DNA from: Sedimentisphaerales bacterium
GTDB lineage: Bacteria; Planctomycetota; Phycisphaerae; Sedimentisphaerales; Anaerobacaceae
Assembly (NCBI GenBank): GCA_036744855.1
Contig: DAIOHF010000014.1
Location: 45,287-109,286 of the forward strand
DNA length: 64,000 nucleotides
Direction of reading: 5' to 3'
Part shown: piece after piece, positions 1 to 56,198 of the stretch
Layout of the letters: every line of letters starts with the position of its first letter
How positions within the stretch are numbered: position 1 is the first letter of the stretch
The notes under the pieces: generated by a model
The model's input: only the letters and a program-made list of their open reading frames with translations
The model's database searches: none
Told to the model about the DNA's origin: nothing
Program-made: the position numbers and the translations under genes

Positions 1-30
1 GCTGGAGCCAAGTTCGACTGGATGAAGCAC

Positions 31-2062: not shown

Positions 2063-3970
2063 ATGTCGGCTCTTGACATCGTCGTATTCGTCGCATTTGT
2101 GGTCTCCGTGGTGACCATCGGCCTGGTCAAGAGCCGGAAGGAGAAGACCGGCGAAGACTACTTCCTCGCGGGTCGAGGCCTGTCCTGGTGGCTGATCGGT
2201 TTCTCCCTCATCGCCGCGAACATCTCGACCGAGCAGTTCGTCGGCATGAGCGGCCAGGCCGCCGACTGGCTGGGCATGGCCATCGCCAGCTATGAATGGA
2301 TGGCGGCCATCACGCTGATCGTCGTGGCCTTTCTATTCCTGCCGACCTTCCTCAAGAGCGGCATCTACACGATCCCCGAATTCCTGGAGTACCGATACAA
2401 CGCCTTCGCGCGGACGATCATGGCGATCTGCACTATGATCATCCTCGTCGGCGTCCCGACCGCCTCCGTCATCTATTCCGGCGCCAAGGTCGTCGGCGTG
2501 TACTTCCAGGGACAGACCATCCTGGGTCTGGACCTTGGCAACATCACCGTCGGCTGCTGGATCATCGGCGTCGCAGCCGCGGTCTACGTTTTCGCGGGCG
2601 GACTGAAGGCCTGCGCCTGGGCCGACCTGATCCAGGGTTCGGCCCTGGTCATCGGAGGCGCGATCGTCATGTTCCTTGCGATGCAGGCCCTGGGCAGCGC
2701 CGACCCGGCCACCCTGGTCTCGACCGCCGCGGATCCCCAGGTCACAGCCGACCAACTCACCAATACCGGCGCCTGGGGGCGGTTCATGGCGCTGAACAAG
2801 GCCCCTCTGCCGGAAGGGAAACTGCACATGGTCCGCCAGCTCTCCGACCCGGCCATCCCGTGGTCGGCGCTGGTCATCGGCCTGTGGATTCCGAATTTCT
2901 TTTATTGGGGCCTCAATCAGTACATCACGCAGCGCACGCTGGGCTCCAAGTCGCTGGCCCAGGGGCAGAAAGGCATCGTCTTTGCCGCGTTCCTGAAGCT
3001 CCTGATCCCGTTCGTGGTGGTCATCCCCGGCATCCTCGCCTTCAACCTGTTCCACAAAGACCTCCAGGCCGAAGCCGCCCGCAAGAACAGAGACACCTTG
3101 GCCGCCTTCGAACAGAAGCAGCAGATGGTCTTCGAGTTCACGCCCTCCTATGCCCAACTGAACGCGGACATCGCCACCGCCATGGCGGCGCACAACGCGA
3201 CCATGGTCCAGGCTCCGCTGGCCGCGCCCGAATCTCTGACCGCAGACGCTCTGGTCGCCAGGAACACCGAGTTCATCGCGGCCGCCAAGACCAAAGGCGT
3301 CAAGATCTCGCAGAAACTGGTCGGACACGATTTCGACGCGGCCTTCCCCACCCTGGTCCGCAACCTCGTATCCAAGCATCACGGCATCCTCGGCTTCGTT
3401 CTGGCGGCGCTGTTCGGCGCGGTGGTCAGCTCCATCGCGGCCATGCTCAACGCAGCCTCCACCATCTTCACCATGGACATCTTCCGCAAGGTGAAAAAGG
3501 ACGCCTCTCAAACCGCCCTGGTCACGTGTGGGCGGATCTGCATCGTGGTCTTCGTGCTCATCGCGATCTCCATCGCACCGAAGCTCGACAGTCCCAAGTT
3601 CGGCGGCATCTTCACCTTCATCCAGGAGTTCCAGGGGTTCATCTCGCCGGGCATTCTGGCCATCTTCCTGTTCGGCCTGTTGATCCACCGCGCCCCTCGT
3701 CACGCGGGAACCGTCGGTCTGATCCTGAACCCGATCCTCTACGGCACGCTGAAGTACGCCGCACCGCAGATCGCGTTCCTCAACCGCATGGCCATCTGCT
3801 TCGGCGTCATCCTGGCCGTCTTGACCGTCATGACGCTGGTCAAGCCGTTGCCCGAGCCGATCGTCCTGCCGATAAATCCCAAAATGGACATGACCACCTC
3901 TCGCGGCGCCAAGCTGGCCGGCGTGGGCGTCGTGATCCTGACGCTGGCGCTCTACGCGATCTTCTGGTGA
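2063..3970 (+). CDS. Sodium:solute symporter family (SGLT-like) transporter with a ~110-aa hydrophilic insert
   Basis: N-terminus DYFLAGRGLSWWLIGFSLIAANISTEQFVGMSGQ is the SSF signature. The protein is multi-pass hydrophobic. ATG at 2063 is preceded by AAGGAAAGGA. The upstream part of the track ORF overlaps nnrD. Confidence 0.85.
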   Translation: MSALDIVVFVAFVVSVVTIGLVKSRKEKTGEDYFLAGRGLSWWLIGFSLIAANISTEQFVGMSGQAADWLGMAIASYEWMAAITLIVVAFLFLPTFLKSGIYTIPEFLEYRYNAFARTIMAICTMIILVGVPTASVIYSGAKVVGVYFQGQTILGLDLGNITVGCWIIGVAAAVYVFAGGLKACAWADLIQGSALVIGGAIVMFLAMQALGSADPATLVSTAADPQVTADQLTNTGAWGRFMALNKAPLPEGKLHMVRQLSDPAIPWSALVIGLWIPNFFYWGLNQYITQRTLGSKSLAQGQKGIVFAAFLKLLIPFVVVIPGILAFNLFHKDLQAEAARKNRDTLAAFEQKQQMVFEFTPSYAQLNADIATAMAAHNATMVQAPLAAPESLTADALVARNTEFIAAAKTKGVKISQKLVGHDFDAAFPTLVRNLVSKHHGILGFVLAALFGAVVSSIAAMLNAASTIFTMDIFRKVKKDASQTALVTCGRICIVVFVLIAISIAPKLDSPKFGGIFTFIQEFQGFISPGILAIFLFGLLIHRAPRHAGTVGLILNPILYGTLKYAAPQIAFLNRMAICFGVILAVLTVMTLVKPLPEPIVLPINPKMDMTTSRGAKLAGVGVVILTLALYAIFW

Positions 3971-6616: not shown

Positions 6617-6787
6617 CTAGACGGTACTGATATCATACCCGCTTTTCAGGATTTGTGTGGTGAAGAAATGCGGGAATCGAAAGGTCTTCCTCAAGCGACC
6701 CAAAAGCCGAAGGCTATTCGGAAACACCTCCTCGACTCGCCCGGAGTCTGTCACCGCCGCATTGCCTTGACTGCCTGCCGCCTGCAT
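6617..6787 (-). CDS. Possible 56-aa ORF using the repeat-borne RBS and ATG
   Basis: Its RBS (AAGGGGA) and start codon lie inside the 236-bp repeat and are identical to those of the GNAT gene at 8785. The downstream sequence is unrelated and unrecognised. Confidence 0.2.
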   Translation of the reverse strand: MQAAGSQGNAAVTDSGRVEEVFPNSLRLLGRLRKTFRFPHFFTTQILKSGYDISTV

Positions 6788-7016
6788 CGAGTTCCCCTTC
6801 ACACGTGACCGGGATTCTAGTCCATTCCTGCGGCAGGGTCAATACGAACGACGGAGAATCTCGCGGCGATTGCACGTGACCGCGGCTGCAAGGTGTCGAG
6901 GGCGTCCCGCCCTCGAATCGCGGGCAAGATGCCCGCGACACGGGAGTCGTCCAACGATTGGCGACGCCACACGCAATTGCCCTGCGAGGAATCTCGGGGG
7001 GGTGCCTGGGTGTCTG
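6781..7016. repeat. Copy A of a ~236-bp composite repeat (REP hairpins plus outward RBS/start codon)
   Basis: Near-identical to 8779-9016 by direct reading. Contains hairpins GAGGGCGTCCCGCCCTC (6898-6914) and GCGGGCAAGATGCCCGC (6920-6936). Confidence 0.85.
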
Positions 7017-7928: not shown

Positions 7929-8785
7929 TGTTCCGTCCCGATGTCTAACGTGAGGGATGAACCGCTCCGGCGAGAACGCCGTCCGCTACGGCCTTGCCGC
8001 AGTTGTGTTCGATCCGGTTGTTCTGCATTCTCACGCATGATGTTCATGAATCTCGTCGCGCTGACCGGACGGTCCGCGATCAGCTTTCCATTGCAGACGA
8101 TGCTGAACATGCCATAGGGCGTCGGAAGCTCCCTTGACGCCTCGGCGCTCGTGACGGGAACCACCTTCGGCTTCAACCCCAGGGCTCGGGCCGCCTGCGA
8201 AATCTCCTGGACCCACTTGGGAACCATCGGGCATTGATCGGCAGCCAGGATCGTCAGGCCCTTCTTGTACTTTCCCGGCAATCGCTCCCTTTGGACGATG
8301 AAACGAGGATCGGGGGCTGCTTTCTTCAGCTTCTTGACGAGCAGTTCATAAGGACCGATGCGGTCCACCGAGACGAAACCCGCTTTGAGGAAGAAGCCGC
8401 TGCCTGCCATGAAGCTGTCCTCGCTGGTCACGACCGCGACCCCTCGGCACTTGCTCTCCTTCGCGTCGCCCAGGCAACTATCCAGAAGGAGGACGCCGAG
8501 CCCTTTGCCCTTGTGCCTGCTGTTGACCATCAGGCAATGGATGACAAGATAACCCTCCGCCTCCACCGGTCTCCAGGCATGGTTGCCCAGGGCATACTCG
8601 ATCATCCCGATATCGCCGAATTCACGCGAGCGGAGCACCTTGAACCTCAAGCCTTCCGCGTAGCGTTCCTTGAGCCAACCAACCTTCCGGCGATGCCCCT
8701 CGCTTCTCCCGGCTTTGTAGCCACAGAAGCCGCAGTCGCTGATATTCCCGGCGTTCGTGTCGATGATCTCGTATTCGCCCTGCAT
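7925..8785 (-). CDS. GNAT-family N-acetyltransferase with YoaP-like C-terminal domain
   Basis: LVIHCLMVNSRHKGKGLGVLLLDSCL...GVAVVTS...GFFLKAGF resembles a GNAT acetyl-CoA site. The C-terminal half (QCPMVPKW...TPYGMFSIVCNGKLI) resembles the YoaP-like domain. I prefer the ATG at 8785 (MQGEYEII). Confidence 0.6.
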   Translation of the reverse strand: MQGEYEIIDTNAGNISDCGFCGYKAGRSEGHRRKVGWLKERYAEGLRFKVLRSREFGDIGMIEYALGNHAWRPVEAEGYLVIHCLMVNSRHKGKGLGVLLLDSCLGDAKESKCRGVAVVTSEDSFMAGSGFFLKAGFVSVDRIGPYELLVKKLKKAAPDPRFIVQRERLPGKYKKGLTILAADQCPMVPKWVQEISQAARALGLKPKVVPVTSAEASRELPTPYGMFSIVCNGKLIADRPVSATRFMNIMRENAEQPDRTQLRQGRSGRRSRRSGSSLTLDIGTEQ

Positions 8786-9016
8786 CGAATTCCCCTTCAC
8801 ACGTGACCGGGATTCTAATCCACTCCCGTTGGAGGGTCAATGCGGGCGACGGCGAATCTCGCGGCGATTGCACGTGACCGCGGCTGCAACGTGTCGAGGG
8901 CGTCCCGCCCTCGAATCGCGGGCAAGATGCCCGCGACACGGGAGTCGTCCAACGATTGGCGACGCCACACGCAATTGACCTGCGAGGAATCTGGGGGCGG
9001 GGGCCTGGGTGTCTTC
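8779..9016. repeat. Copy B of the ~236-bp composite repeat
   Basis: Near-identical to 6781-7016. Hairpins at 8896-8912 and 8918-8934. It ends at the start codon of the GNAT gene. Confidence 0.85.
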
Positions 9017-15521: not shown

Positions 15522-15873
15522 GACGTATCAGCCCCGCCTTTCTCAAGGAAGCGCCCTAGCCGCCGAACTCGGCCATCTGTCTTTTGCACTCCCAACATCG
15601 GGTCGCCTTTACTTGTCGCAACGATTATACCGTGCCGGGCAGGGGAAGGCAAGACCGCCGGCGAAGAGGATCGCCTCTCCTGCGGCTGCGGTCACAATAC
15701 GGCGGCAGGACTTGTACAAATTTCGGCATATTTTCGGTTTTTGTGCAACACACAACCATCATCGAGCGTCTTAATGATGAGCGACTTGGAGGGACCGCCA
15801 GGGCCTTAGGGCCCGGTCGCAGGCTGGACCAGGGTTTCTGCGAACGCGTATGAGAAGCGCTCTTCGTCGTGTC

Positions 15874-15939
15874 GCGGGCGTCCCGCCCGCGCGTGACGAG
15901 GCCATCTTGGCCTCGCATTTCCGCGGACAAGATGTCCGC
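15874..15939. repeat. Cluster of three REP-type 7+3+7 hairpins
   Basis: GCGGGCG-TCC-CGCCCGC (15874-15890), GAGGCCA-TCT-TGGCCTC (15898-15914) and GCGGACA-AGA-TGTCCGC (15923-15939), followed by the GACACG tail. Confidence 0.8.
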
Positions 15940-16089
15940 GACACGTTCTGAATGGCAAAGGCACGATATCTTGTTTTCCGGCTTCTTGAGACAATGGACC
16001 GCGACAATCACACTGACACAGTAGGGATTCATGCTTTCATTCGCACCACCCAGGCTCTTCGTCGTTCACAAGCCGCCAAGCTCGCGAAA

Positions 16090-30481: not shown

Positions 30482-31996
30482 ATGGCCAAGGCCAAGACAA
30501 CGAGAAGAAAAGGCGGGAAGAGGAAAGCTTCCGCGGAAGAAGTGGCGGAAGAACAGCGCGAGCAGCCTCGCGAGACGGAGCTGCAAGCCTCCCCCGTTGC
30601 CGCCCTGGATGAAGAAGCAGGCGAGAGTCGTTCGGCCGACGAGGAGTTTCAGACCGACGGTCTTGAAGTCACCGACGGCGTCGAGACCGGGGATGAGGAA
30701 TCGACGCACGCCAAGTACGAGCGAATCAAGAAGGGCAACCTGTACCTCACGGACCTGCAGCGGCTCACCGTCGGCGACCTGCACGAGATGGCCAAGAAGG
30801 AGGGCATCACCGAGTACAGCGCCCTGAAGAAGCAGGACCTGATCTTCCGCATCCTCAAGGAGCGCATCCGACAGAGCGGTCTGATGTACGGCGAGGGCGT
30901 CCTGGAGGTCCTCCCCGACGGCTACGGCTTCCTCCGAAATCCGACGTACAATTATTTGTCGTCCTCCGACGACATTTACGTGTCGCCGTCCCAGATCCGT
31001 CGTTTCGGCCTGCGGACCGGCAACATCGTTTCCGGACAAATCAGGCCCCCAAAGGATTCGGAAAAGTACTTCGCCCTGCTGCGCGTCGAGGCGATCAACT
31101 TCGAGAACCCCGACCTGCTGGCGGACAAGATCGTCTTCAGCGATCTGACTCCGCTGCATCCCGAGCAGCGGCTCATCCTCGAAACCGGTCATGACGAGCT
31201 GAACATGCGGATCATCGACCTGGTCACCCCGGTCGGCAAGGGCCAGCGAGGCCTGATCGTCGCTCCGCCGCGAACCGGCAAGACGATCCTGCTCCAGAAG
31301 ATGGCCAACGCCATCAGCACCAATCATCCGGAAGTGAAGCTGATCGTGCTGCTGATCGACGAGCGGCCCGAGGAAGTGACGGAAATGGAGCGCAAGACCG
31401 CCGATTCCGTCGAGGTCATCAGCTCGACGTTCGACGAGCCCGCCGCCCGTCACTGCCAGGTGGCCGAGATCGTCATCGAGAAGGCCAAACGCATGGTCGA
31501 ATACGGCCAGGACGTCGTCATCCTGCTGGACTCCATCACGCGTCTGGCGCGAGCCTACAACAACGAGACGCCCCACTCCGGCCGTATCCTCACCGGCGGC
31601 GTCGACGCCGGCGCGATGCAGATGCCCAAGAAGTTCTTCGGCGCCGCCCGAAAGGTCGAAGAAGGCGGCTCGCTGAGCATCTTCGCCACCGCCCTGATCG
31701 ACACCGGGTCCAAGATGGACGAAGTGATTTTCGAGGAGTTCAAGGCGACCGGCAACATGGAGCTGCACCTGGATCGTCGGCTCGTGGATCGGCGCGTCTG
31801 GCCGGCCATCGAGATCACCCGCAGCGGAACCCGACGCGAGGAACTGCTGCTGGATCCCAAGGAACTCGAACTGGTGTACCGCCTGCGGCGCGTGCTGAGC
31901 GACCTGAACCCGGTCGAGGCCGTCGAGCTGCTCAAGAGCCGTCTGGCCAAGACGCGAAGCAACGCCGAGTTCCTGATGACCATGAACCTCGACTGA
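30482..31996 (+). CDS. rho: Transcription termination factor Rho (with acidic/basic N-terminal extension)
   Basis: AAGGAG RBS. GYGFLR RNA-binding motif. [26 protein letters not shown] Walker [27 protein letters not shown]-type block. Confidence 0.95.
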
Positions 31997-32110
31997 GGTT
32001 CGCGGCCCGTCGCCGGCGAGATGACACAGGCGATCTGTGAAATGTCTCGACGCGGCGAGGCGATAAAATCGAGCCCTTTACAGGGCGTCCCTGTGGGATT
32101 AACATGACTT

Positions 32111-32142
32111 CCGGCAGACATCGTGTCTGCCGGAATTTTTTT
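32111..32142 (+). terminator. Intrinsic terminator / leader hairpin between rho and valS
   Basis: CCGGCAGACA-TCG-TGTCTGCCGG, then AA and TTTTTTT. It ends 27 nt before the valS ATG. Confidence 0.65.
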
Positions 32143-32168
32143 AGGCTGTCTTTACGTTTGGATGGGTC

Positions 32169-35100
32169 ATGGCTGAGTTGTCGAAGGTGTACGATCCGAA
32201 GGCCGTCGAGGAGCAGATCAACAAGCTCTGGCAGTCGGGGTCCTATTTCCATGCCGAGCCGTCGCGCGACGGGAACAAACGCCCCCCGTTCACGATCGTG
32301 ATCCCCCCGCCGAACGTCACCGCGGCCCTGCACCTGGGACATGCCCTCAACAACACGCTCCAGGACGTCCTGATCCGGTTCCGCAGGATGCAGCAGCGCG
32401 AGACGCTCTGGATGCCCGGCACGGACCACGCCGGCATCGCGACGCAGACGGTCGTCGAGAAGCGAATCCTTTCGGAGGAAGGCAAGCGGCGCACCGACTT
32501 CGCGCGGGAGGAGTTCGTCAAACGCATCCAGGCATGGAAGGACGAATACGAAGCGACGATCCTCGGCCAGCTCAAGGCGATGGGTTGCTCGTGCGACTGG
32601 CAGCGGACCCGCTTCACGATGGACGAGGTCTGCGCCAAGGCGGTCCGCGCAACGTTCTTCAAGCTCTTCCAGGACGGCCTGATCTATCGCGGCAAACGCC
32701 TCGTGAACTGGGACCCGGCCACCCAGACGGTCCTTGCCGACGACGAAGTCGAGCACGAGACGGTCCAAGGCCACTTTTGGTACCTGAAATACCCGCTCGT
32801 TGAGCCGGTCGAGGTGCCGCGTGATGCGGGCATCCTGCCCGCACGTGTCGCGGACGTCCCGTCCGCGAGTGCCGAGGGCGTCCCGCCCTCGGAAATTGGG
32901 CGAGAGCCAACCATCGAGAAGCGAATGGGCCGCTACCTGCCTCACTGGTCCAAGGATGATGCTGTGTACGCCGTCACTTTCCGTCTCGCGGACGCGGTCC
33001 CAGATGACATCTCCGAGGACTGGCGTCTTCAGCGACAGAATATCGTGCAACGTGCCCAGCAACAGGAACATCCACTCAGCTATGACGAACGGGTCGAGCT
33101 GCAAAGACTCCACTCGGCGAAGATCGAAGCCTTCCTCGATGCAGGGCATGGCGATTGTCTTCTCCGAGACCCGCAGGTCGCCCGAATTGTGCAGAATGCA
33201 GTGCGGCACTTCGACCATGAACGGTATGAGATCGTCGCCTGGGCGATCATGCCCAATCATGTGCATGTGGTCGTCAGACCCTTCGCCGGACAGGAGCTAT
33301 CCAAGATCGTTCAGTCCTGGAAGTCTTTTGCAGCCAAGGAAATCAACCGATTGCTCAACCGCCAGGGTTCCCTCTGGATGGATGAGTATTATGACCATCT
33401 GATTCGTGATGAAAAGGACCTCGGGAACCAGGTCAGCTACACGCTCGCAAACCCTGAGAAGGCCGGTTTGCAGAATTGGCCGTGGTATGGCACTATACAC
33501 GGTGAAGAACGAGGGCAGGATGCCCTCGACACGCAAGGGCGGGACGCCCTCGCCACGATGACCTACGTCACCGTCGCCACGACCCGGCCGGAGACGATGC
33601 TGGGCGATACCGCTGTCGCCATGAACCCGGCCGATCCGAGAGCGAAGTCCCTCGTCGGCAAAATGGTCCGCCTGCCCATCGTCGGGCGCGTCATCCCGAT
33701 CATCGCCGACGAGCACGTCGTGCTGCCGAACCCCGAGAGCGAGGACGAGAAGGCCAGGTTCTCCACGGGCTTCTTGAAGGTCACGCCCGCCCACGACCCG
33801 GACGACTGGGCCATCGGGCAAAGGCACAATCTGTCGGTGATCAACGTGATGGCGCCGGACGGCTCGATCAGCGACAAGCACGGCTGGCAGGACGCGACCG
33901 AGCCCGAAGCCCGCAACCTGCTCGGCATGGACCGCTTCGAAGCCCGCGAGGCCATCGTCGAATGGTTCCGCCAGGAAAACCTGCTGGAGGAGATTCGCGA
34001 CTACACCCACGAAGTCGGCCACAGCTACCGCAGCCACGTCCCGATCGAGCCCTACCTGTCCGATCAGTGGTACGTCGCGGTCAAGCAGCCGATCCCGCAC
34101 TTGGCTGAGAAATTCGGTAGCGGCACGATCGAAGGAACCGATGTCCCCGTAAACTCGCTCGCAGGTCTGGCGCTCAAGCCCCTACTCGACAGCCGCCTGC
34201 GGTTCATCCCCGAACGATACGCCAAGACCTATCAGACTTGGCTGGAGAACCTGCGGGACTGGCCGATCAGCCGCCAGCTCTGGTGGGGACACCGCATTCC
34301 GGTGTGGTCCAAGCCCGGCCAGCAGAATGGAACTGCCCTGCCCGCCGGCGTCCATTCCGTCCAAGCGGACACCGACGAAGGTCCGATCGTCTTCGCCTGC
34401 GTCGCTCCTGGTCACGAGGACGTGGAGAAGAAACTCGAATCGCAGGGATGGAAGCGCGACTCCGACGTTCTCGACACGTGGTTCTCGTCGGCCCTCTGGC
34501 CGTTCAGTACGCTGGGCTGGCCGCAGGAGTCACCGACGCTGGAGACCTTCTACCCGGGCGACGTGCTGTGCACCGCCCGCGAGATCATCACGCTGTGGGT
34601 CTCCCGCATGGTGATGATGGGCCAGTACTGCGCGGGCGACATCCCGTTCCGCGATGTGTACATTCACGCGATGATCCAGGACGGCGAAGGCCGTAAGATG
34701 TCCAAGAGTCTGGGCAACGGCATCGATCCGCTCGTCGTGATCGACAGCCACGGCGCCGACGCGATGCGGTTCACCCTGGCGACCATGACGACGGACACGC
34801 AGGACATCCGCATGCCGGTGGCGTCCATGACGCTGCCGGATGGGCGGACCGTGAACACCTCGCCCAAGTTCGACGTCGGCCGCAATTTCTGCAACAAGCT
34901 GTGGAACGCATCGCGGTTCGCGATGATGAATCTCGAAGGGACGGATCCCGCGGGCTTCGACGCGAGCCGACTGGATGTCACCGACCGCTGGATCCTGTCC
35001 CGCCTGGCGACGACCCGCCACGAGGTGACCGCGGCCGTCGAGTCGTTCAAGTTCAGCGAGCCGGTGAACCTCTTGTACCGCTTCTTCTGGAACGACCTGT

Positions 35101-35831
35101 GCGACTGGTATCTCGAATGGGCCAAGTACCGTGTGCGGGACGAGGCCGCCAAGGGAGTGGCCCAGAATGTCCTGGCCTTCGTGCTCGACCAGACCCTGCG
35201 TCTGCTGCACCCGTTCATTCCGTTCATCACCGAGGGCATCTACCAGAACCTCAAGGAACTGGCGCCCGTTCGGGAACTGCGTGGCGTCGCCTCCGGCGAC
35301 AACCCGGACGCTCTCGCTGTCGCGCCGTGGCCGCAGAGCCTGGAATCGCTGAAGGACGCCGTGGCCGAGGCGGAGATCCAGGTCGTCCAGGACGTCGTGC
35401 GGGCGATCCGCGACCTGCGAAGCAAATACAACATCCCGCCCAGCGCGAGACTCAAGGCTTCCGCCGCAGCGCCGCAAGTGATCTCCGACGTGCTCGAAAC
35501 CGGGGGCGATCTGGTCTGCCAACTGGCGGGACTCGAATCGTTCCAGGCCGCAGAGGGGCTCGCCAAGCCGAACAACGCCGCGACGGCCATAGTAGAAGAC
35601 ACGCACGTGTACGTGCATGACGTGATCGACCCCGAGGCCGAACGCGCTCGACTGACGAAACAGAAGCAGGAAATCGAACAGGCGAAAAAGGGCGTCGAAG
35701 GCAAGCTGGCCAACGAGAACTTCGTCGCCAGGGCCAAGCCCGAAGTGGTCGCCCAGGCCCGGGAGAAGCTCCAGCAGCTCCAGGACCAGTTGCAGGCGGT
35801 CGAGAAGCACCTGGCCGAACTTGGCGGATAG
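32169..35831 (+). CDS. valS: Valine--tRNA ligase interrupted in frame by a RAYT/REP module (1220 aa)
   Basis: PPPNVTAALHLGHA (HIGH), ATTRPETMLGDTAVA and KMSKSLGN motifs, plus a C-terminal coiled coil. About 240 extra residues lie between YPL and YVTVATTRPE. Confidence 0.9.
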   Translation: MAELSKVYDPKAVEEQINKLWQSGSYFHAEPSRDGNKRPPFTIVIPPPNVTAALHLGHALNNTLQDVLIRFRRMQQRETLWMPGTDHAGIATQTVVEKRILSEEGKRRTDFAREEFVKRIQAWKDEYEATILGQLKAMGCSCDWQRTRFTMDEVCAKAVRATFFKLFQDGLIYRGKRLVNWDPATQTVLADDEVEHETVQGHFWYLKYPLVEPVEVPRDAGILPARVADVPSASAEGVPPSEIGREPTIEKRMGRYLPHWSKDDAVYAVTFRLADAVPDDISEDWRLQRQNIVQRAQQQEHPLSYDERVELQRLHSAKIEAFLDAGHGDCLLRDPQVARIVQNAVRHFDHERYEIVAWAIMPNHVHVVVRPFAGQELSKIVQSWKSFAAKEINRLLNRQGSLWMDEYYDHLIRDEKDLGNQVSYTLANPEKAGLQNWPWYGTIHGEERGQDALDTQGRDALATMTYVTVATTRPETMLGDTAVAMNPADPRAKSLVGKMVRLPIVGRVIPIIADEHVVLPNPESEDEKARFSTGFLKVTPAHDPDDWAIGQRHNLSVINVMAPDGSISDKHGWQDATEPEARNLLGMDRFEAREAIVEWFRQENLLEEIRDYTHEVGHSYRSHVPIEPYLSDQWYVAVKQPIPHLAEKFGSGTIEGTDVPVNSLAGLALKPLLDSRLRFIPERYAKTYQTWLENLRDWPISRQLWWGHRIPVWSKPGQQNGTALPAGVHSVQADTDEGPIVFACVAPGHEDVEKKLESQGWKRDSDVLDTWFSSALWPFSTLGWPQESPTLETFYPGDVLCTAREIITLWVSRMVMMGQYCAGDIPFRDVYIHAMIQDGEGRKMSKSLGNGIDPLVVIDSHGADAMRFTLATMTTDTQDIRMPVASMTLPDGRTVNTSPKFDVGRNFCNKLWNASRFAMMNLEGTDPAGFDASRLDVTDRWILSRLATTRHEVTAAVESFKFSEPVNLLYRFFWNDLCDWYLEWAKYRVRDEAAKGVAQNVLAFVLDQTLRLLHPFIPFITEGIYQNLKELAPVRELRGVASGDNPDALAVAPWPQSLESLKDAVAEAEIQVVQDVVRAIRDLRSKYNIPPSARLKASAAAPQVISDVLETGGDLVCQLAGLESFQAAEGLAKPNNAATAIVEDTHVYVHDVIDPEAERARLTKQKQEIEQAKKGVEGKLANENFVARAKPEVVAQAREKLQQLQDQLQAVEKHLAELGG
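32826..33551 (+). mobile_element. REP-RAYT-REP module (REPtron-like, IS200/Y1 HUH transposase) in frame within valS
   Basis: Internal ATG at 32925 (MGRYLPHW). HUH motif MPNHVHVVV (33258-33266). Tyr motif SYTLANPEKAGL (33438). Three hairpins at 32826-32890 and two at 33511-33551, in opposed orientation. Confidence 0.7.
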
Positions 35832-35836
35832 AGGAT

Positions 35837-36010
35837 GGATTTCCGAAAAACGGCCATTCGACCTATATTCTTCAAGGAAATCTGTTTCACGATTTCCTTG
35901 GAGAATCGATTTAGAGTGTACTCTGGTATGGACGAATTTTCAGGAGGGAGGAATTGCAGGGCAAATTCTTCCCTCCTAAAGTAGGCCGAATAGCCGTTTT
36001 TCGGAGATCC
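35837..36010. repeat. 174-bp AT-rich element with 29-bp terminal inverted repeats (MITE or structured RNA candidate)
   Basis: GGATTTCCGAAAAACGGCCATTCGACCTA (35837-35865) versus TAGGCCGAATAGCCGTTTTTCGGAGATCC (35982-36010). Internal hairpins GGAAATC...GATTTCC and GGAGGGAGGAATT...AATTCTTCCCTCC. Confidence 0.7.
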
Positions 36011-36034
36011 CGTTAGCAGAGTCAGGGGGAACGA

Positions 36035-36430
36035 ATGGAAGTCGAAGTTGAACTGTCGCGGATCATCATCAATGAGACGTCCGACCAGCAGATCATCGTG
36101 CTGAAGGAGCGTCACGGCACGCGCGGCTTCCCCATCGTGATCGGGATCGTGGAGATCTTCGCGATCGACCGAAGGCTCAAGGGAATCAAGCCGCCCCGCC
36201 CGATGACGCACGACCTCCTGGCCAACGTGATCGACGGCCTCGGCGCCAAGGTCGAACGGATCGTGATCAGCGACCTCCGCAACCACACGTTCTACGCGAA
36301 GATCCACCTGAGCATCGACGGGCGCACCGTCCAGGTCGATTCCCGCCCCTCCGACGCCATCGCGCTGTGCGCGGCCCTGCAGGCCCCTATCTTTGTGGCC
36401 GAGCACATTTTCGATCTGACGAATCAGTGA
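36035..36430 (+). CDS. Bifunctional nuclease family protein (DUF151/BFN)
   Basis: PIVIGIVEIFAI...RPMTHDLL...FYAKI...DSRPSDAIALC...APIFV matches the BFN domain pattern. Confidence 0.8.
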   Translation: MEVEVELSRIIINETSDQQIIVLKERHGTRGFPIVIGIVEIFAIDRRLKGIKPPRPMTHDLLANVIDGLGAKVERIVISDLRNHTFYAKIHLSIDGRTVQVDSRPSDAIALCAALQAPIFVAEHIFDLTNQ

Positions 36431-36971
36431 CGAAGGTCGCCACGATCAGAAGCCCGACCGCGATGCACAACCAGGCGTCGGCCACGTTGAACGTGTGCCA
36501 GTGCCGGCCGGGCCAGTAGACCACGTCGATGAAGTCCCGAACCCGTCCGTCGTTGAAGATGCGGTCCCACAGGTTGCCGCTGACGCCCGCCGCGAAGAGC
36601 CCCAGCGCAACCTGAATGACGCGCTGCCTGGCGGTCCCGAAGAAGAACACGCCGAGAATGATGAGCATCGCCATCGCGGCCACCCCGATCAGGAACGGCC
36701 GCTGTCCGCCGGCGATTCCGAAGGCCGCCCCTTCGTTCAGCGCCAACTGAAACGACAGAAAACCGTCGATGATCGTGACCCTCTGACCGGGCTTGTCCCA
36801 CAGCCAGGCAAACACCGCGTGCTTGGACCACAGATCCGCAGCCAGACCGAGGAGCATCATGGGCCAGAAGATCAGGTGTCCCGTCGCGTCGGGCAGTTCG
36901 ATGCGTTGACGGAGATTCAGCGGACAGCTCGGTGCGATGGGTTCGATCCTCTCTTGGTTGCCGGTTTCCAT
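36387..36971 (-). CDS. lspA: Lipoprotein signal peptidase II
   Basis: NEGAAFGI, GNLWDR and FNVAD motifs with 4 TM segments. The 3' end overlaps the convergent BFN gene by 44 nt. Confidence 0.85.
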   Translation of the reverse strand: METGNQERIEPIAPSCPLNLRQRIELPDATGHLIFWPMMLLGLAADLWSKHAVFAWLWDKPGQRVTIIDGFLSFQLALNEGAAFGIAGGQRPFLIGVAAMAMLIILGVFFFGTARQRVIQVALGLFAAGVSGNLWDRIFNDGRVRDFIDVVYWPGRHWHTFNVADAWLCIAVGLLIVATFVTDSSDRKCARPQR

Positions 36972-53543: not shown

Positions 53544-56198
53544 TCACACCACGATGTTCACCAATCGGCCTTTGACCACGAGCACCTTCTTGGGCGTCTT
53601 GCCTCCCAAAGCGAAGACCACCTTCTCGCTGGCCAGCGCAACCGCCTTGACCGACTCGTCGTCCGCCTCGGCAGCCACGACGATGCGGTCCTTCACCTTG
53701 CCGTTGACCTGGACCGCCAGTTCGAGCTGCTTCTCGCGGGCCAGCTCTTCGTCATACTGCGGCCACGGCTCGTACGCCAGGCTGCGATCGTGTCCGAGAC
53801 GCGACCACAACTCCTCGGCCACGTGCGGCGCGAACGGCGCCAGAATCAGGATGAAAGACTCGACCACCGACTTGGGCCGGACTTCCTGGCGAGCCAGGTG
53901 GTTCACGAAGATCATCATCGCACTGATGGCGGTATTGAACCCGAACGTCTCGACGTCGCCGCCGACCTTGCGAATCGTCTGGTGCAGCAGCCGCAGCGTC
54001 TCTTCATCGGCCTGGGCCTCGCGGACCGCCGAGTCGAGTTCGTTCGTCTCCTCATTGACCACCATTCGCCAGGTCTTCTGGAGGAACCGGTACACGCCTT
54101 GGACGCCCTGCATGCTCCAGGGCTTCATCGCCTCCAGCGGGCCCATGAACATCTCGTACAGACGCATCGAGTCGCCGCCGAACTCAGCGATCACGTGGTC
54201 GGGGTTCACCACGTTGCCGCGGGACTTGCTCATCTTCTGGCCGTCCTCGCCGAGGATCATGCCCTGGTTGATCAGCCGCGTGAACGGCTCGGCTGTGCTG
54301 ACGTAACCTCGATCGAACAGAAACTTGTGCCAGAAGCGAGAGTAGAGCAGGTGCAGCACCGCGTGCTCGGCGCCGCCGATGTAGAGATCGACCGCCATCC
54401 AGTACCGTTCCTTGGCCGGGTCCCAGCCCTGCTGCGGATTCTTCGGGTCGATGTATCGCAGGTAGTACCAGCAACTTCCGGCCCATTGGGGCATCGTGTT
54501 GGTCTCCCGCCGGGCCGGCCCGCCGCAGCGGGGACATGTGGCGTTGAGCCAGTCGGTCGCTTTGGCCAAAGGCGGCTCGCCCGTCACCGGAGGCGTGTAG
54601 TCCGTCACCTCAGGCAACGTCAGCGGCAGCGCCGATTCTGGAAGCGGCACGACGCCGCACTTCTCGCAGTGAACGACCGGGATGGGCTCGCCCCAATACC
54701 GCTGCCGGCTGAACAACCAGTCCCGCAGTTTGAAGTTGATCGCCTTGCAGCCCAGCCCGTTCTCCGCAAGCCACGCCGTGATCTTGGTCTTGGCCTCGGC
54801 GGTCGGCAGCCCGGTGATGGAGACCTCCGGCCCAGTGGAGTTCACTGAGGTCCCATCGTCCACGAAGCCCTTCCAATCCGTCTTCGAGTCCGGCGGCTGA
54901 ACCACCTGGATCACAGGAAGGCAGAACTTCTGGGCAAACTCATAGTCGCGAGTGTCATGTGCAGGCACCGCCATGATCGCGCCGGTGCCGTAGGTGGCCA
55001 GCACGTAATCCGCGATCCAAATCGGGATCTTCTCCCGATTGACCGGATTGACCGCATAGTTGCCGGTGAAGACACCGGTCTTCTCTTTGTCGAGCGAGGT
55101 GCGCTCCAGTTCGCTCTTGCGGGCGGCCTCCGTGCGATAGGCCTGGATCGCCTCCCGTTGCTGGGCTGTCGTGATATTCTCGACCAGCGGATGCTCGGGC
55201 GACAGCACCATGTACGTGGCGCCGAAGAGCGTGTCGGGTCGGGTGGTGAACACGCGGAGCTTCTGCCCGGCCGCAGGGCCTTCAGCGATTTCGAAGTCCA
55301 CCTCCGCGCCTTCACTGCGGCCGATCCAGTTGCGCTGCATCTCTTTGATCGACTCAGACCATGTGACGAGCTTGAGGTCTTCGAGCAATCGGTCGGCGTA
55401 GGCTGTGATCCGAAGCAGCCACTGACGCATCGGCTTGCGCACCACGTTCTGATGCCCCTTGCGGTCGCACTTGCCGTCTTTCACCTCCTCGTTGGCCAGC
55501 ACCGCCTTGCAGCCTTCGCACCACCAGACAGGGACCCAGTTCTCGTAGGCCAGCCGCAGATCCGAAACGGTCTTGCGAAGGAACGCCTCCCTCTTGTGAG
55601 GATCGCCGCCTGCGGCCTGCGCCGCCTTGTGCCACGACGTCAGGAACGCGCTGGACTCCCATTCGGACCTGCGCCGGGGCTTCTGGGCCAGCGCATCTTC
55701 AAGCAGCGAGATGTCGGCCGCCTTGCCCCACGAGGGATCGTAGTAGCTGTTGAACAGCTTCAGGAAGATCCACTGGGTCCATTTGAAGTAGGCGGGGTCG
55801 GTGGTGTCCACCTCGCGGTCCCAGTCGTACGAGAAACCCAACATCTTGATCTGGCGGCGGAACGTGTTGATGTTCTTTCCCGTCGTGACCGACGGATGCG
55901 TGCCTGTGTCGATGGCGTACTGCTCGGCAGGCAGGCCGAAGGCGTCCCAGCCCATCGGGTGCAGGACGTTGAACCCCTTCATCCGCTTGTATCGCGCGAC
56001 GATGTCGCTGGCGGTGTAGCCCTCGGGATGCCCTACGTGCAGACCCTGGCCGCTCGGATAGGGGAACATGTCGAGAACATAGTACTTCGGCCGGGAGGCG
56101 TCGCAATCCCCGGCCCGGAAGGTCTTGTTCTCTTCCCAGTGCTTCTGCCACTTCGGCTCGATCGAACCGAAATCGTACGTGCCCTGCTTTTCGCTCAT
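53544..56198 (-). CDS. leuS: Leucine--tRNA ligase
   Basis: [18 protein letters not shown] (HIGH) and KMSKSRGN (KMSKS) motifs. 884 aa with typical LeuRS blocks. Confidence 0.95.

Follow-up and report, generated by a model that had tools for sequence, protein, structure and literature searches.

How does a transposase domain come to lie, in frame, in the middle of an essential enzyme? This question is raised by the valS gene, which encodes valyl-tRNA synthetase (ValRS), in a stretch of 64,000 nucleotides from a Sedimentisphaerales bacterium (contig DAIOHF010000014.1 of assembly GCA_036744855.1), the whole of which is called the window here. REP-associated tyrosine transposases (RAYTs), which are named after repetitive extragenic palindromes (REPs), are commonly regarded as domesticated transposases that stand alone, occur in single copy and are inherited vertically, and to our knowledge the spread of REPs and RAYTs in vivo has never been shown. 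In the window valS, a RAYT flanked by inverted REP arrays, an arrangement called a REPtron, lies in frame in a turn of the ValRS editing domain, and the evidence set out below makes it quite probable that this cassette is a mobile REPtron living as a guest domain in essential proteins.

The cassette in the window valS

What is inserted into valS, and where? The gene and the cassette consist of the following parts.

32169-35831, plus strand: valS open reading frame (ORF) for the ValRS-RAYT chimera, one uninterrupted frame of 1220 aa
32169-32819, plus strand: N-terminal ValRS host segment, residues 1-217, last residues ...FWYLKYPLVEPVEVP, aligning to Thermus thermophilus ValRS (1GAX) up to strand LYTLRYEV
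32820-32891, plus strand: left REP array, three 24-nt units translated as RDAGILPA/RVADVPSA/SAEGVPPS (repeat analysis, folding as single-stranded DNA, ssDNA)
32907-33506, plus strand: RAYT domain (TnpAREP-like HUH/Y1 nuclease), ValRS residues 247-446 (Pfam, NCBIfam, PDB, Foldseek)
33258-33266, plus strand: HUH motif H364-V365-H366 within MPNHVH (residues 361-366), aligning to LPEHMH of 4ER8
33438-33455, plus strand: catalytic Tyr motif Y424-TLANP, aligning to YIYINP of 4ER8
33510-33557, minus strand: right REP array, two inverted 24-nt units translated on the plus strand as RGQDALDT/QGRDALAT (repeat analysis, ssDNA folding)
33558-35831, plus strand: C-terminal ValRS host segment, residues 464-1220 (Pfam and NCBIfam matches, alignment to 1GAX)

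The initial annotation of this DNA had described valS as a single uninterrupted ORF with an unusually wide spacing between the motif FWYLKYPL and the editing motif, and both statements hold: 256 residues lie between FWYLKYPL (residues 203-210) and VTVATTRPET (467-476), as against 16 in 47 related species, measured as the gap between two motif regular expressions. The host protein is otherwise a complete ValRS. The whole protein scores 1059 bits against the NCBIfam valS equivalog NF004349 (cut-off 704) in two stretches separated by the insert, and tRNA-synt_1, Anticodon_1 and Val_tRNA-synt_C are all found by Pfam and NCBIfam. The N-terminal segment is collinear with orthologues that have an empty site, residues 464-1220 comprise the remaining editing domain, the catalytic core, the anticodon-binding domain and the C-terminal arm, and the HIGH-type motif (HLGH), KMSKS and the Thr-rich editing motif TTRPET are invariant or nearly so among 120 ValRS homologues. 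In T. thermophilus ValRS the short turn VEGGG joins the corresponding strands LYTLRYEV and FIEIATVRPET. In alignments to this structure and to 1WK9, the editing domain alone, the insert falls in the first β-hairpin turn of the CP1 editing domain, a few residues upstream of the Thr-rich motif, in agreement with the proposed surface turn at the entry of CP1. In every occupied valS allele the four turn codons DGKR are replaced, and there is a single common junction.

The guest domain is recognized by the Pfam family Y1_Tnp (PF01797; 35.8 bits, curated cut-off 23), a search that the initial annotation had put forward as a check on its assignment of the insert to the HUH/Y1 RAYTs, and by the NCBIfam equivalog REP_Tyr_transpos (NF047646; 85.7 bits, cut-off 80). 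Its closest sequence match in the PDB is 4ER8, the TnpAREP of E. coli (E 8e-7). The HUH and Tyr motifs lie exactly where they had been placed. Residues M361, P362, N363, H364, V365 and H366 are nearly invariant among the 120 ValRS homologues; in an alignment of 121 RAYT sequences M, P and H154 of the HUH motif as well as Tyr and Asn of the Y-x3-NP motif are invariant. Both motifs are conserved in all 30 orthologous inserts, the HUH motif in the form MPNH(V/I)H. An AlphaFold2 (AF2) model of the insert, computed with 120 diverse RAYT homologues as input, has a mean predicted local distance difference test score (pLDDT) of 83.6 and exceeds 90 in the core. The best PDB match to this model by Foldseek is chain 4er8_A (E 1.2e-7, target-normalised TM 0.64), with the transposases of IS608 and ISDra2 next. 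The RAYT has neither a start nor a stop of its own, as the upstream Met is not conserved and no stop follows the domain.

Two other identities were tried for the insert and rejected. An IS200/IS605 insertion sequence is contradicted by a score of 25.9 against a cut-off of 55 for NF033573, by the inverted orientation of the hairpins and by the lack of an adjacent tnpB. An intein is contradicted by the lack of any Hint/intein family in Pfam and of splice residues: the insert starts at P217/R218, and its last REP-encoded residues are A-T, followed by Met.

The bracketing hairpins, three on one side and two in opposed orientation on the other, are confirmed as 24-nt units, so that the complete cassette spans 32820-33557 (738 nt, 246 codons). 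The left and right arrays pair as a 48-nt inverted repeat around the RAYT with 79% complementarity, and the tags of the REPs point outward on both sides. As ssDNA each unit forms a 5-nt tail (C)GTGN, an 8-bp G+C-rich stem and a 3-nt loop with folding energies of -6.8 to -10.5 kcal/mol (z -2.7 to -5.8). The tags in the window read GTGA, GTGT, GTGC or GTGG and agree with GTAG at two to three of four positions; related nested cassettes carry the canonical GTAG (loci L001, L089, L091, L109 and L149 in our numbering) or GTGG. Since the G+C-rich unit measures 24 nt, it is translated as 8-residue peptide repeats, which have the pattern xxG(V/I)(P/L)Pxx in the left array and xG(Q/R)DAxxT in the right one. 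These stretches have pLDDT values below about 55 in both AlphaFold runs (below 50 for the right array) and are predicted to be disordered linkers on either side of a RAYT domain that folds on its own.

REPs of the same family are also found elsewhere in the window, where seven further units form three intergenic clusters.

6892-6942, no strand assigned: intergenic inverted REP doublet of the cassette's family (motif census)
8890-8940, no strand assigned: second inverted REP doublet of the cassette's family, within a 222-nt direct repeat (motif census)
15868-15945, no strand assigned: intergenic cluster of three REP units (motif census)

Across the window 9-14 occurrences of the hairpin motif were counted, as against 0.5-0.9 expected from shuffles. 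The 222-nt direct repeat (6781-7002 and 8779-9000) is 93% identical between its copies, which lie 1998 nt apart and each hold an inverted doublet; the two doublets were duplicated along with the surrounding sequence rather than inserted separately. A generic census of GC-rich hairpins in the 3-kb flanks of occupied and empty loci was uninformative, as terminators confound it. Rfam and tRNA scans of the window found nothing and thus give no intron-like RNA or tRNA target.

Neither a second valS nor a second RAYT is present in the 64-kb window. An 884-aa ORF at 53544-56198 on the minus strand shows weak similarity (24-26%) to segments of ValRS, lacks a RAYT or tagged REP, and presumably encodes another class I aminoacyl-tRNA synthetase. 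The gene order rho, valS, BFN domain protein, lspA (window 30482-36971) is shared with Anaerobaca lacustris (L083:7563-14609), in which coaE precedes rho, and this synteny assigns the window to Sedimentisphaerales (Phycisphaerae).

Recurrence and probable mobility in valS and in other genes

Is the nested RAYT peculiar to this one gene? The initial annotation knew of no described RAYT in frame in an aminoacyl-tRNA synthetase. The case is not unique: the arrangement is widespread in valS of Phycisphaerae, and many other genes host RAYTs of the same clade. A scan with the window protein, covering one genome for each GTDB species, yielded 80 loci, of which 79 could be parsed. All 80 belong to Planctomycetota, mostly to Sedimentisphaerales and other Phycisphaerae. 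An insert of 234-316 residues is found at the same codon in 30 of the 79 parsed loci, and in 47 the site is empty, the motif regular expressions being separated by 16 residues, typically L-VEPVEIDGKRIEH-V; the proposed alignment of ValRS orthologues thus revealed relatives without the segment. In the other two loci the gap measures 23 residues and holds one REP (L030), or 25 residues of unrelated sequence (L073). The latter, SDLRLPIANCKSKID, occupies the same turn and has no REP or RAYT similarity; the turn of the editing domain seems to be generally tolerant of insertions. In a collection of 5.8 billion proteins the top 120 matches gave 117 parsable clusters, 111 of which are ValRS proteins with a Y1_Tnp domain of roughly 1150-1370 aa, including the window protein (P0121). 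Every parsed copy of the insert, in the 30 GTDB loci as in the 111 clusters, is one open frame. The insert is also carried by ValRS of the cultured isolate Anaerobaca lacustris (P0133, GCA_030012215.1) in the synteny coaE-rho-valS-BFN-lspA. In one related contig (L082:2736-8230), with synteny otherwise as in the window, rho is represented by two gene calls and valS by five. Since rho is fragmented as well, these splits are likely to be errors of an indel-rich assembly, probably from long reads, rather than pseudogenes.

Pairwise ratios of nonsynonymous to synonymous substitution rates (dN/dS, Nei-Gojobori) are 0.06-0.19 in the RAYT core and 0.05-0.18 in the host portion of ValRS. In the ValRS alignment, about 60 positions of the RAYT vary hardly or not at all. 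Because of these low ratios and conserved positions, the RAYT can be taken to be kept as a protein and not just as an open frame.

The cassette does not follow the history of its host. A neighbour-joining tree of ValRS stripped of its insert was compared with a separate tree of the RAYT core (WIN denotes the window in these comparisons). On the ValRS tree occupied alleles are intermingled with empty ones, with a Fitch minimum of 18 changes, and sister pairs that differ in state are joined at 97-100% bootstrap support (WIN/L021, L001/L025, L004/L032, L020/L067 and L010/L060). RAYT and host distances are uncorrelated (Spearman 0.09). Three RAYT types occur within the host clade of WIN, L021, L001, L025 and L002, which has 100% support, and the window RAYT is 56% identical to the RAYTs of the nearest occupied hosts and 72-73% identical to those of more distant hosts. 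Moreover, synonymous divergence (dS) of the RAYT is well below that of the host in several pairs (0.46 versus 1.88 in L019/L006) and above it in WIN/L005. The G+C content at third codon positions (GC3) also differs between RAYT and host, being 0.66 versus 0.87 in the window, 0.32 versus 0.82 in L011 and 0.31 versus 0.69 in L015. The mismatch in L011, the strongest of those compared, suggests a recent foreign origin of its cassette. The right flank of this cassette consists of six to seven tandem 33-nt repeats derived from REPs and translated as RGQDACDTKxD.

Loss occurs as well. In the valS loop of L030 (about 3600-3720), a sister to the occupied L008 and L003, the first REP alone is left, in frame, as PRGEGVPPLPS, and the ancestral DGKR turn is not restored. 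This sequence is an in-frame deletion scar with a solo REP, formed within an occupied clade after loss of the RAYT.

Is this RAYT clade confined to valS? A HMMER search with the RAYT core against 1.84 billion cluster representatives returned 741 matches at E <1e-30, of which the best 150 were inspected. Among these, 56 representatives measure at least 400 aa, with the RAYT mostly internal, and all but three of the 40 long representatives scanned with Pfam have host domains or host sequence on both sides of the RAYT. These hosts include ValRS, LeuRS, AlaRS, UvrA, DinG/XPD helicases, CarB, MurC-Ddl, IspG and Sua5 and furthermore chorismate-binding (MenF-like) enzymes, zinc alcohol dehydrogenases, electron transfer flavoproteins, thiamine pyrophosphate enzymes and GH38 mannosidases, as well as restriction-modification proteins (Type ISP/MmeI and others). 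In all 22 nested proteins with parsable RAYT boundaries the HUH and Tyr motifs are preserved, and the RAYT is flanked on either side by repeats encoded by REPs. A metagenome scan seeded with the RAYT alignment gave 80 loci, 68 of them parsable. In about 27 of the 68 the RAYT is nested, with no stop after it and continuation of the host frame, in ValRS, AlaRS, DinG, CarB, NadE, MetH, IspG, HsdM and GH38 proteins (NadE, MetH and HsdM being new additions); about 40 are stand-alone RAYTs with a stop 1-47 residues past the W-x-W motif. Taken together, the same RAYT clade is found in frame in at least 15 other protein families (P0241-P0389; L084-L163). Recurrent sites are seen in other hosts too, e.g. 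after TSATL in DinG and before ELCGGTH in AlaRS. Some stand-alone RAYTs are annotated in their source as menaquinone-specific isochorismate synthase, which is wrong and was probably transferred from a MenF-RAYT chimera.

The relationships between cassettes in different genes point to movement of the whole unit. The RAYTs in alaS (L089, L107) and nadE (L091) form one clade (99% bootstrap), whose sister is the valS-nested RAYT of L001 (100%) and which itself falls within a valS-nested group (95%); identities among these alaS, nadE and valS RAYTs are 76-85%. All of them represent one cassette type with the REP variants in the order MGVPPM / TAVPAV / TGILPV. The shared DNA takes in the REP arrays; it starts at the outer (A)GTAG and stops at the outer CTAC, and past these tags unrelated host sequence follows. 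No target duplication is evident at the cassette ends compared in valS, alaS and nadE. To judge from these shared boundaries, the REPtron has moved between genes as an entire unit delimited by its tags; the comparison is direct evidence for such movement.

Explanations for the nested cassette

How might such an element live within an essential gene? In the preferred reading, the mobile guest REPtron, the cassette would be translated through as part of the 1220-aa ValRS, the simplest product being a chimeric ValRS of about 135 kDa. The initial annotation had likewise proposed a REPtron nested in frame and made as a chimera, in line with the family models, the fold, the repeat structure and the alignment to solved ValRS structures. 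ValRS would stay active and the RAYT would be a tethered guest domain; activity in the tethered state is plausible since TnpAREP is monomeric, unlike the IS200/IS605 transposases (PMC3479197). The RAYT would act in trans on the REPs of the genome, and nesting would provide constitutive expression from an essential gene and would protect the element, as a frameshift, a nonsense mutation or an imprecise deletion would destroy ValRS. The mobile unit, bounded by the outer GTAG-like tags, would be gained, lost and exchanged at one valS codon among relatives and would occasionally jump into other genes, e.g. alaS and nadE, and its movement might be either catalysed by the RAYT or brought about by recombination. 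The common junction points to a single insertion at the outset, with subsequent spread of its allele or cassette.

Might the RAYT instead have been domesticated once as a module of ValRS, for instance as a nucleic-acid-binding or regulatory appendage, vertically inherited since and no longer mobile, an option that the initial annotation had also entertained? Such an exapted domain would be in keeping with the equally strong purifying selection on RAYT core and ValRS, with the one junction common to all occupied alleles and with persistence of the insert across deep Phycisphaerae lineages. However, sister species differ in its presence, which requires 18 changes of state or more; the RAYT tree conflicts with that of the host, and dS and GC3 do not match either; the flanking REPs can still fold into hairpins and belong to a family dispersed in the window; and unrelated hosts harbour RAYTs of this clade, with one cassette type in valS, alaS and nadE. 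A single domestication is unlikely, and the evidence favours a horizontally mobile element. Nor does a passive passenger account well for the data, that is a cassette that landed once in a permissive loop and was kept because imprecise deletion is lethal, with the RAYT irrelevant or enzymatically dead. Embedding in an essential gene does constrain the frame, and TnpAREP of E. coli is auto-inhibited and poorly active (PMC3479197), yet a constraint on the frame alone allows free change of amino acids, in conflict with the low dN/dS and the conservation of HUH, Tyr and about 60 other positions, and the scar in L030 shows that in-frame deletion is possible and retention not forced, which renders this explanation highly improbable.

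Expression of the RAYT as a protein of its own, by an internal start or by proteolytic release, is distinctly improbable. The in-frame ATG at 32925 that had been noted as a possible start does exist and precedes the conserved GRYLPHW, and the REP-encoded linkers, if disordered as predicted, could be accessible to proteases. However, separate expression is unlikely because Met is present in only 3 of the 30 orthologous inserts, the other 27 having H, Q, K, R, T, N or C, and because no valS copy has a stop after the RAYT, so that a product of the internal start would still be fused to the 770 C-terminal residues of ValRS; the ATG was accordingly rejected as a conserved RAYT start. Nor was a Hint/intein domain found by Pfam. 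An artefact, be it a chimeric assembly or a decaying valS beside an intact paralogue, can practically be dismissed. Most sequences do come from metagenome-assembled genomes (MAGs) and valS of L082 is in pieces, but the split of rho in the same contig points to sequencing errors, the dN/dS of the host part is typical of an essential gene, and the window holds no second valS. Over 100 independent assemblies, together with the genome of an isolate, show the architecture in one ORF, which excludes this explanation.

Several points weigh against the mobile guest REPtron or against parts of it. The common junction is more easily explained by a single ancestral allele that spread through recombination than by repeated transposition. 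Neither sliding DNA identity nor synonymous third-position divergence around the junction revealed co-transferred host flanks, and a weak dip in divergence 0-40 codons downstream is not significant; without long co-transferred flanks, exchange would proceed via very short tracts, REP-mediated recombination or RAYT activity. The trees are neighbour-joining trees of mostly MAG-derived sequences, the loci were ranked by an insert-containing query and are thus enriched for occupied alleles, and the census of REPs, the RAYT copy number and the check for a second valS are limited to the 64-kb window. The AF2 model of the full-length protein (residues 1-1200, 120 close homologues as input) reaches a pLDDT of 65.5 and a predicted TM score (pTM) of 0.50, which is too poor to place the RAYT relative to the editing and tRNA-binding surfaces, and was used solely for the low-confidence linkers. 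Finally, sequence conservation is the basis for the prediction that the chimera is made, aminoacylates tRNA and cleaves REPs.

With less assurance than for the window cassette itself, the evidence tips in favour of a wider claim, namely that nested REPtrons constitute an unrecognised class of mobile elements. Such elements, [REP array]-RAYT-[REP array] without start or stop and bounded by GTAG/CTAC, would be guests in permissive loops that move between species and genes and behave in populations like inteins but without splicing, the essentiality of the host preventing their loss, and would provide the first natural evidence for mobility of a whole REPtron. Nesting in frame without start and stop is apparently an undescribed mode of persistence for a mobile element.

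Nested cassettes and known systems

Nested cassettes offer a natural, phylogenetically rich record of the mobility and boundaries of REPtrons, and with Anaerobaca lacustris a cultured organism is at hand for testing a nested REPtron. Abundant housekeeping proteins such as ValRS would bear a tethered ssDNA nuclease, with possible effects on genome stability and enzyme function. Annotation is affected as well, since nested proteins are labelled plainly as valine--tRNA ligase, or wrongly as RayT or isochorismate synthase. RAYTs nested in frame were not found described as a phenomenon in the literature searched, an incomplete searchable library whose silence is absence of evidence only, apart from one passing mention of a DinG protein (PMC11981726). 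One paper remarks that long 'fusion' proteins were discarded (PMC6006769).

The closest relatives of the cassette are the REPtrons of E. coli (TnpAREP, 4ER8) and of group 3 in Stenotrophomonas and Marinomonas, which likewise consist of an HUH/Y1 nuclease bracketed by inverted REPs and are accompanied by dispersed intergenic REPs, as seen for the cassette within the 64-kb window (PMC3479197; PMC8266576; PMC6006769). The 23-nt group 3 REP of S. maltophilia resembles the REPs of the window in its 5' tetranucleotide tag, perfect 8-bp stem and 3-nt loop (PMC8266576). However, known REPtrons are stand-alone genes, whereas the window cassette is read through in an essential host gene with its REPs as linker peptides, and their tag is GTAG as compared to GTGN. 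Furthermore, RAYTs are usually described as single-copy and vertically inherited, whereas the nested cassette is discordant with its host and present in different genes together with its REP arrays. IS200/IS605 elements (TnpA of IS608 and ISDra2) share the Y1 HUH fold, subterminal hairpins and guide tetranucleotides with the cassette but have hairpins in the same orientation, an obligate TnpA dimer and often tnpB; the hairpins of the cassette are inverted and tnpB is lacking.

Palindromes within genes are known from the Rickettsia palindromic elements (RPEs) and from GTAG/CGTC REPs, which lie in frame inside uvrA, recB, tRNA synthetase genes and other genes (Di Nocera et al., 2013, PMC3733652). 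As in the nested cassette, palindromes are tolerated in frame, and the hosts overlap in aminoacyl-tRNA synthetases, UvrA and helicases. These cases involve short repeats alone, to which the nested cassette adds a transposase domain of about 200 residues. A DinG-like helicase of Humisphaera borealis with an inserted domain similar to TnpA (4ER8) was called incidental in a 2025 review (PMC11981726). As here, a RAYT-like domain lies in a housekeeping protein of Phycisphaerae, and DinG is a recurrent host in the present data, but the report concerns one protein and leaves REP flanks, mobility, other hosts and ValRS unmentioned.

In their population behaviour the cassettes are most reminiscent of inteins with homing endonucleases, which also place a selfish enzyme in frame in essential proteins, are patchy at a fixed site, are discordant with their hosts and make imprecise loss lethal. 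Inteins have a Hint domain and splice residues, whereas the window insert has neither and presumably stays in the mature protein as a guest. The intein enzymes are of the LAGLIDADG or HNH type, whereas that of the window cassette belongs to the HUH ssDNA nucleases; homing of the cassette by cleavage of the empty allele would be hypothetical. Persistence by embedding thus parallels that of inteins and needs no splicing.

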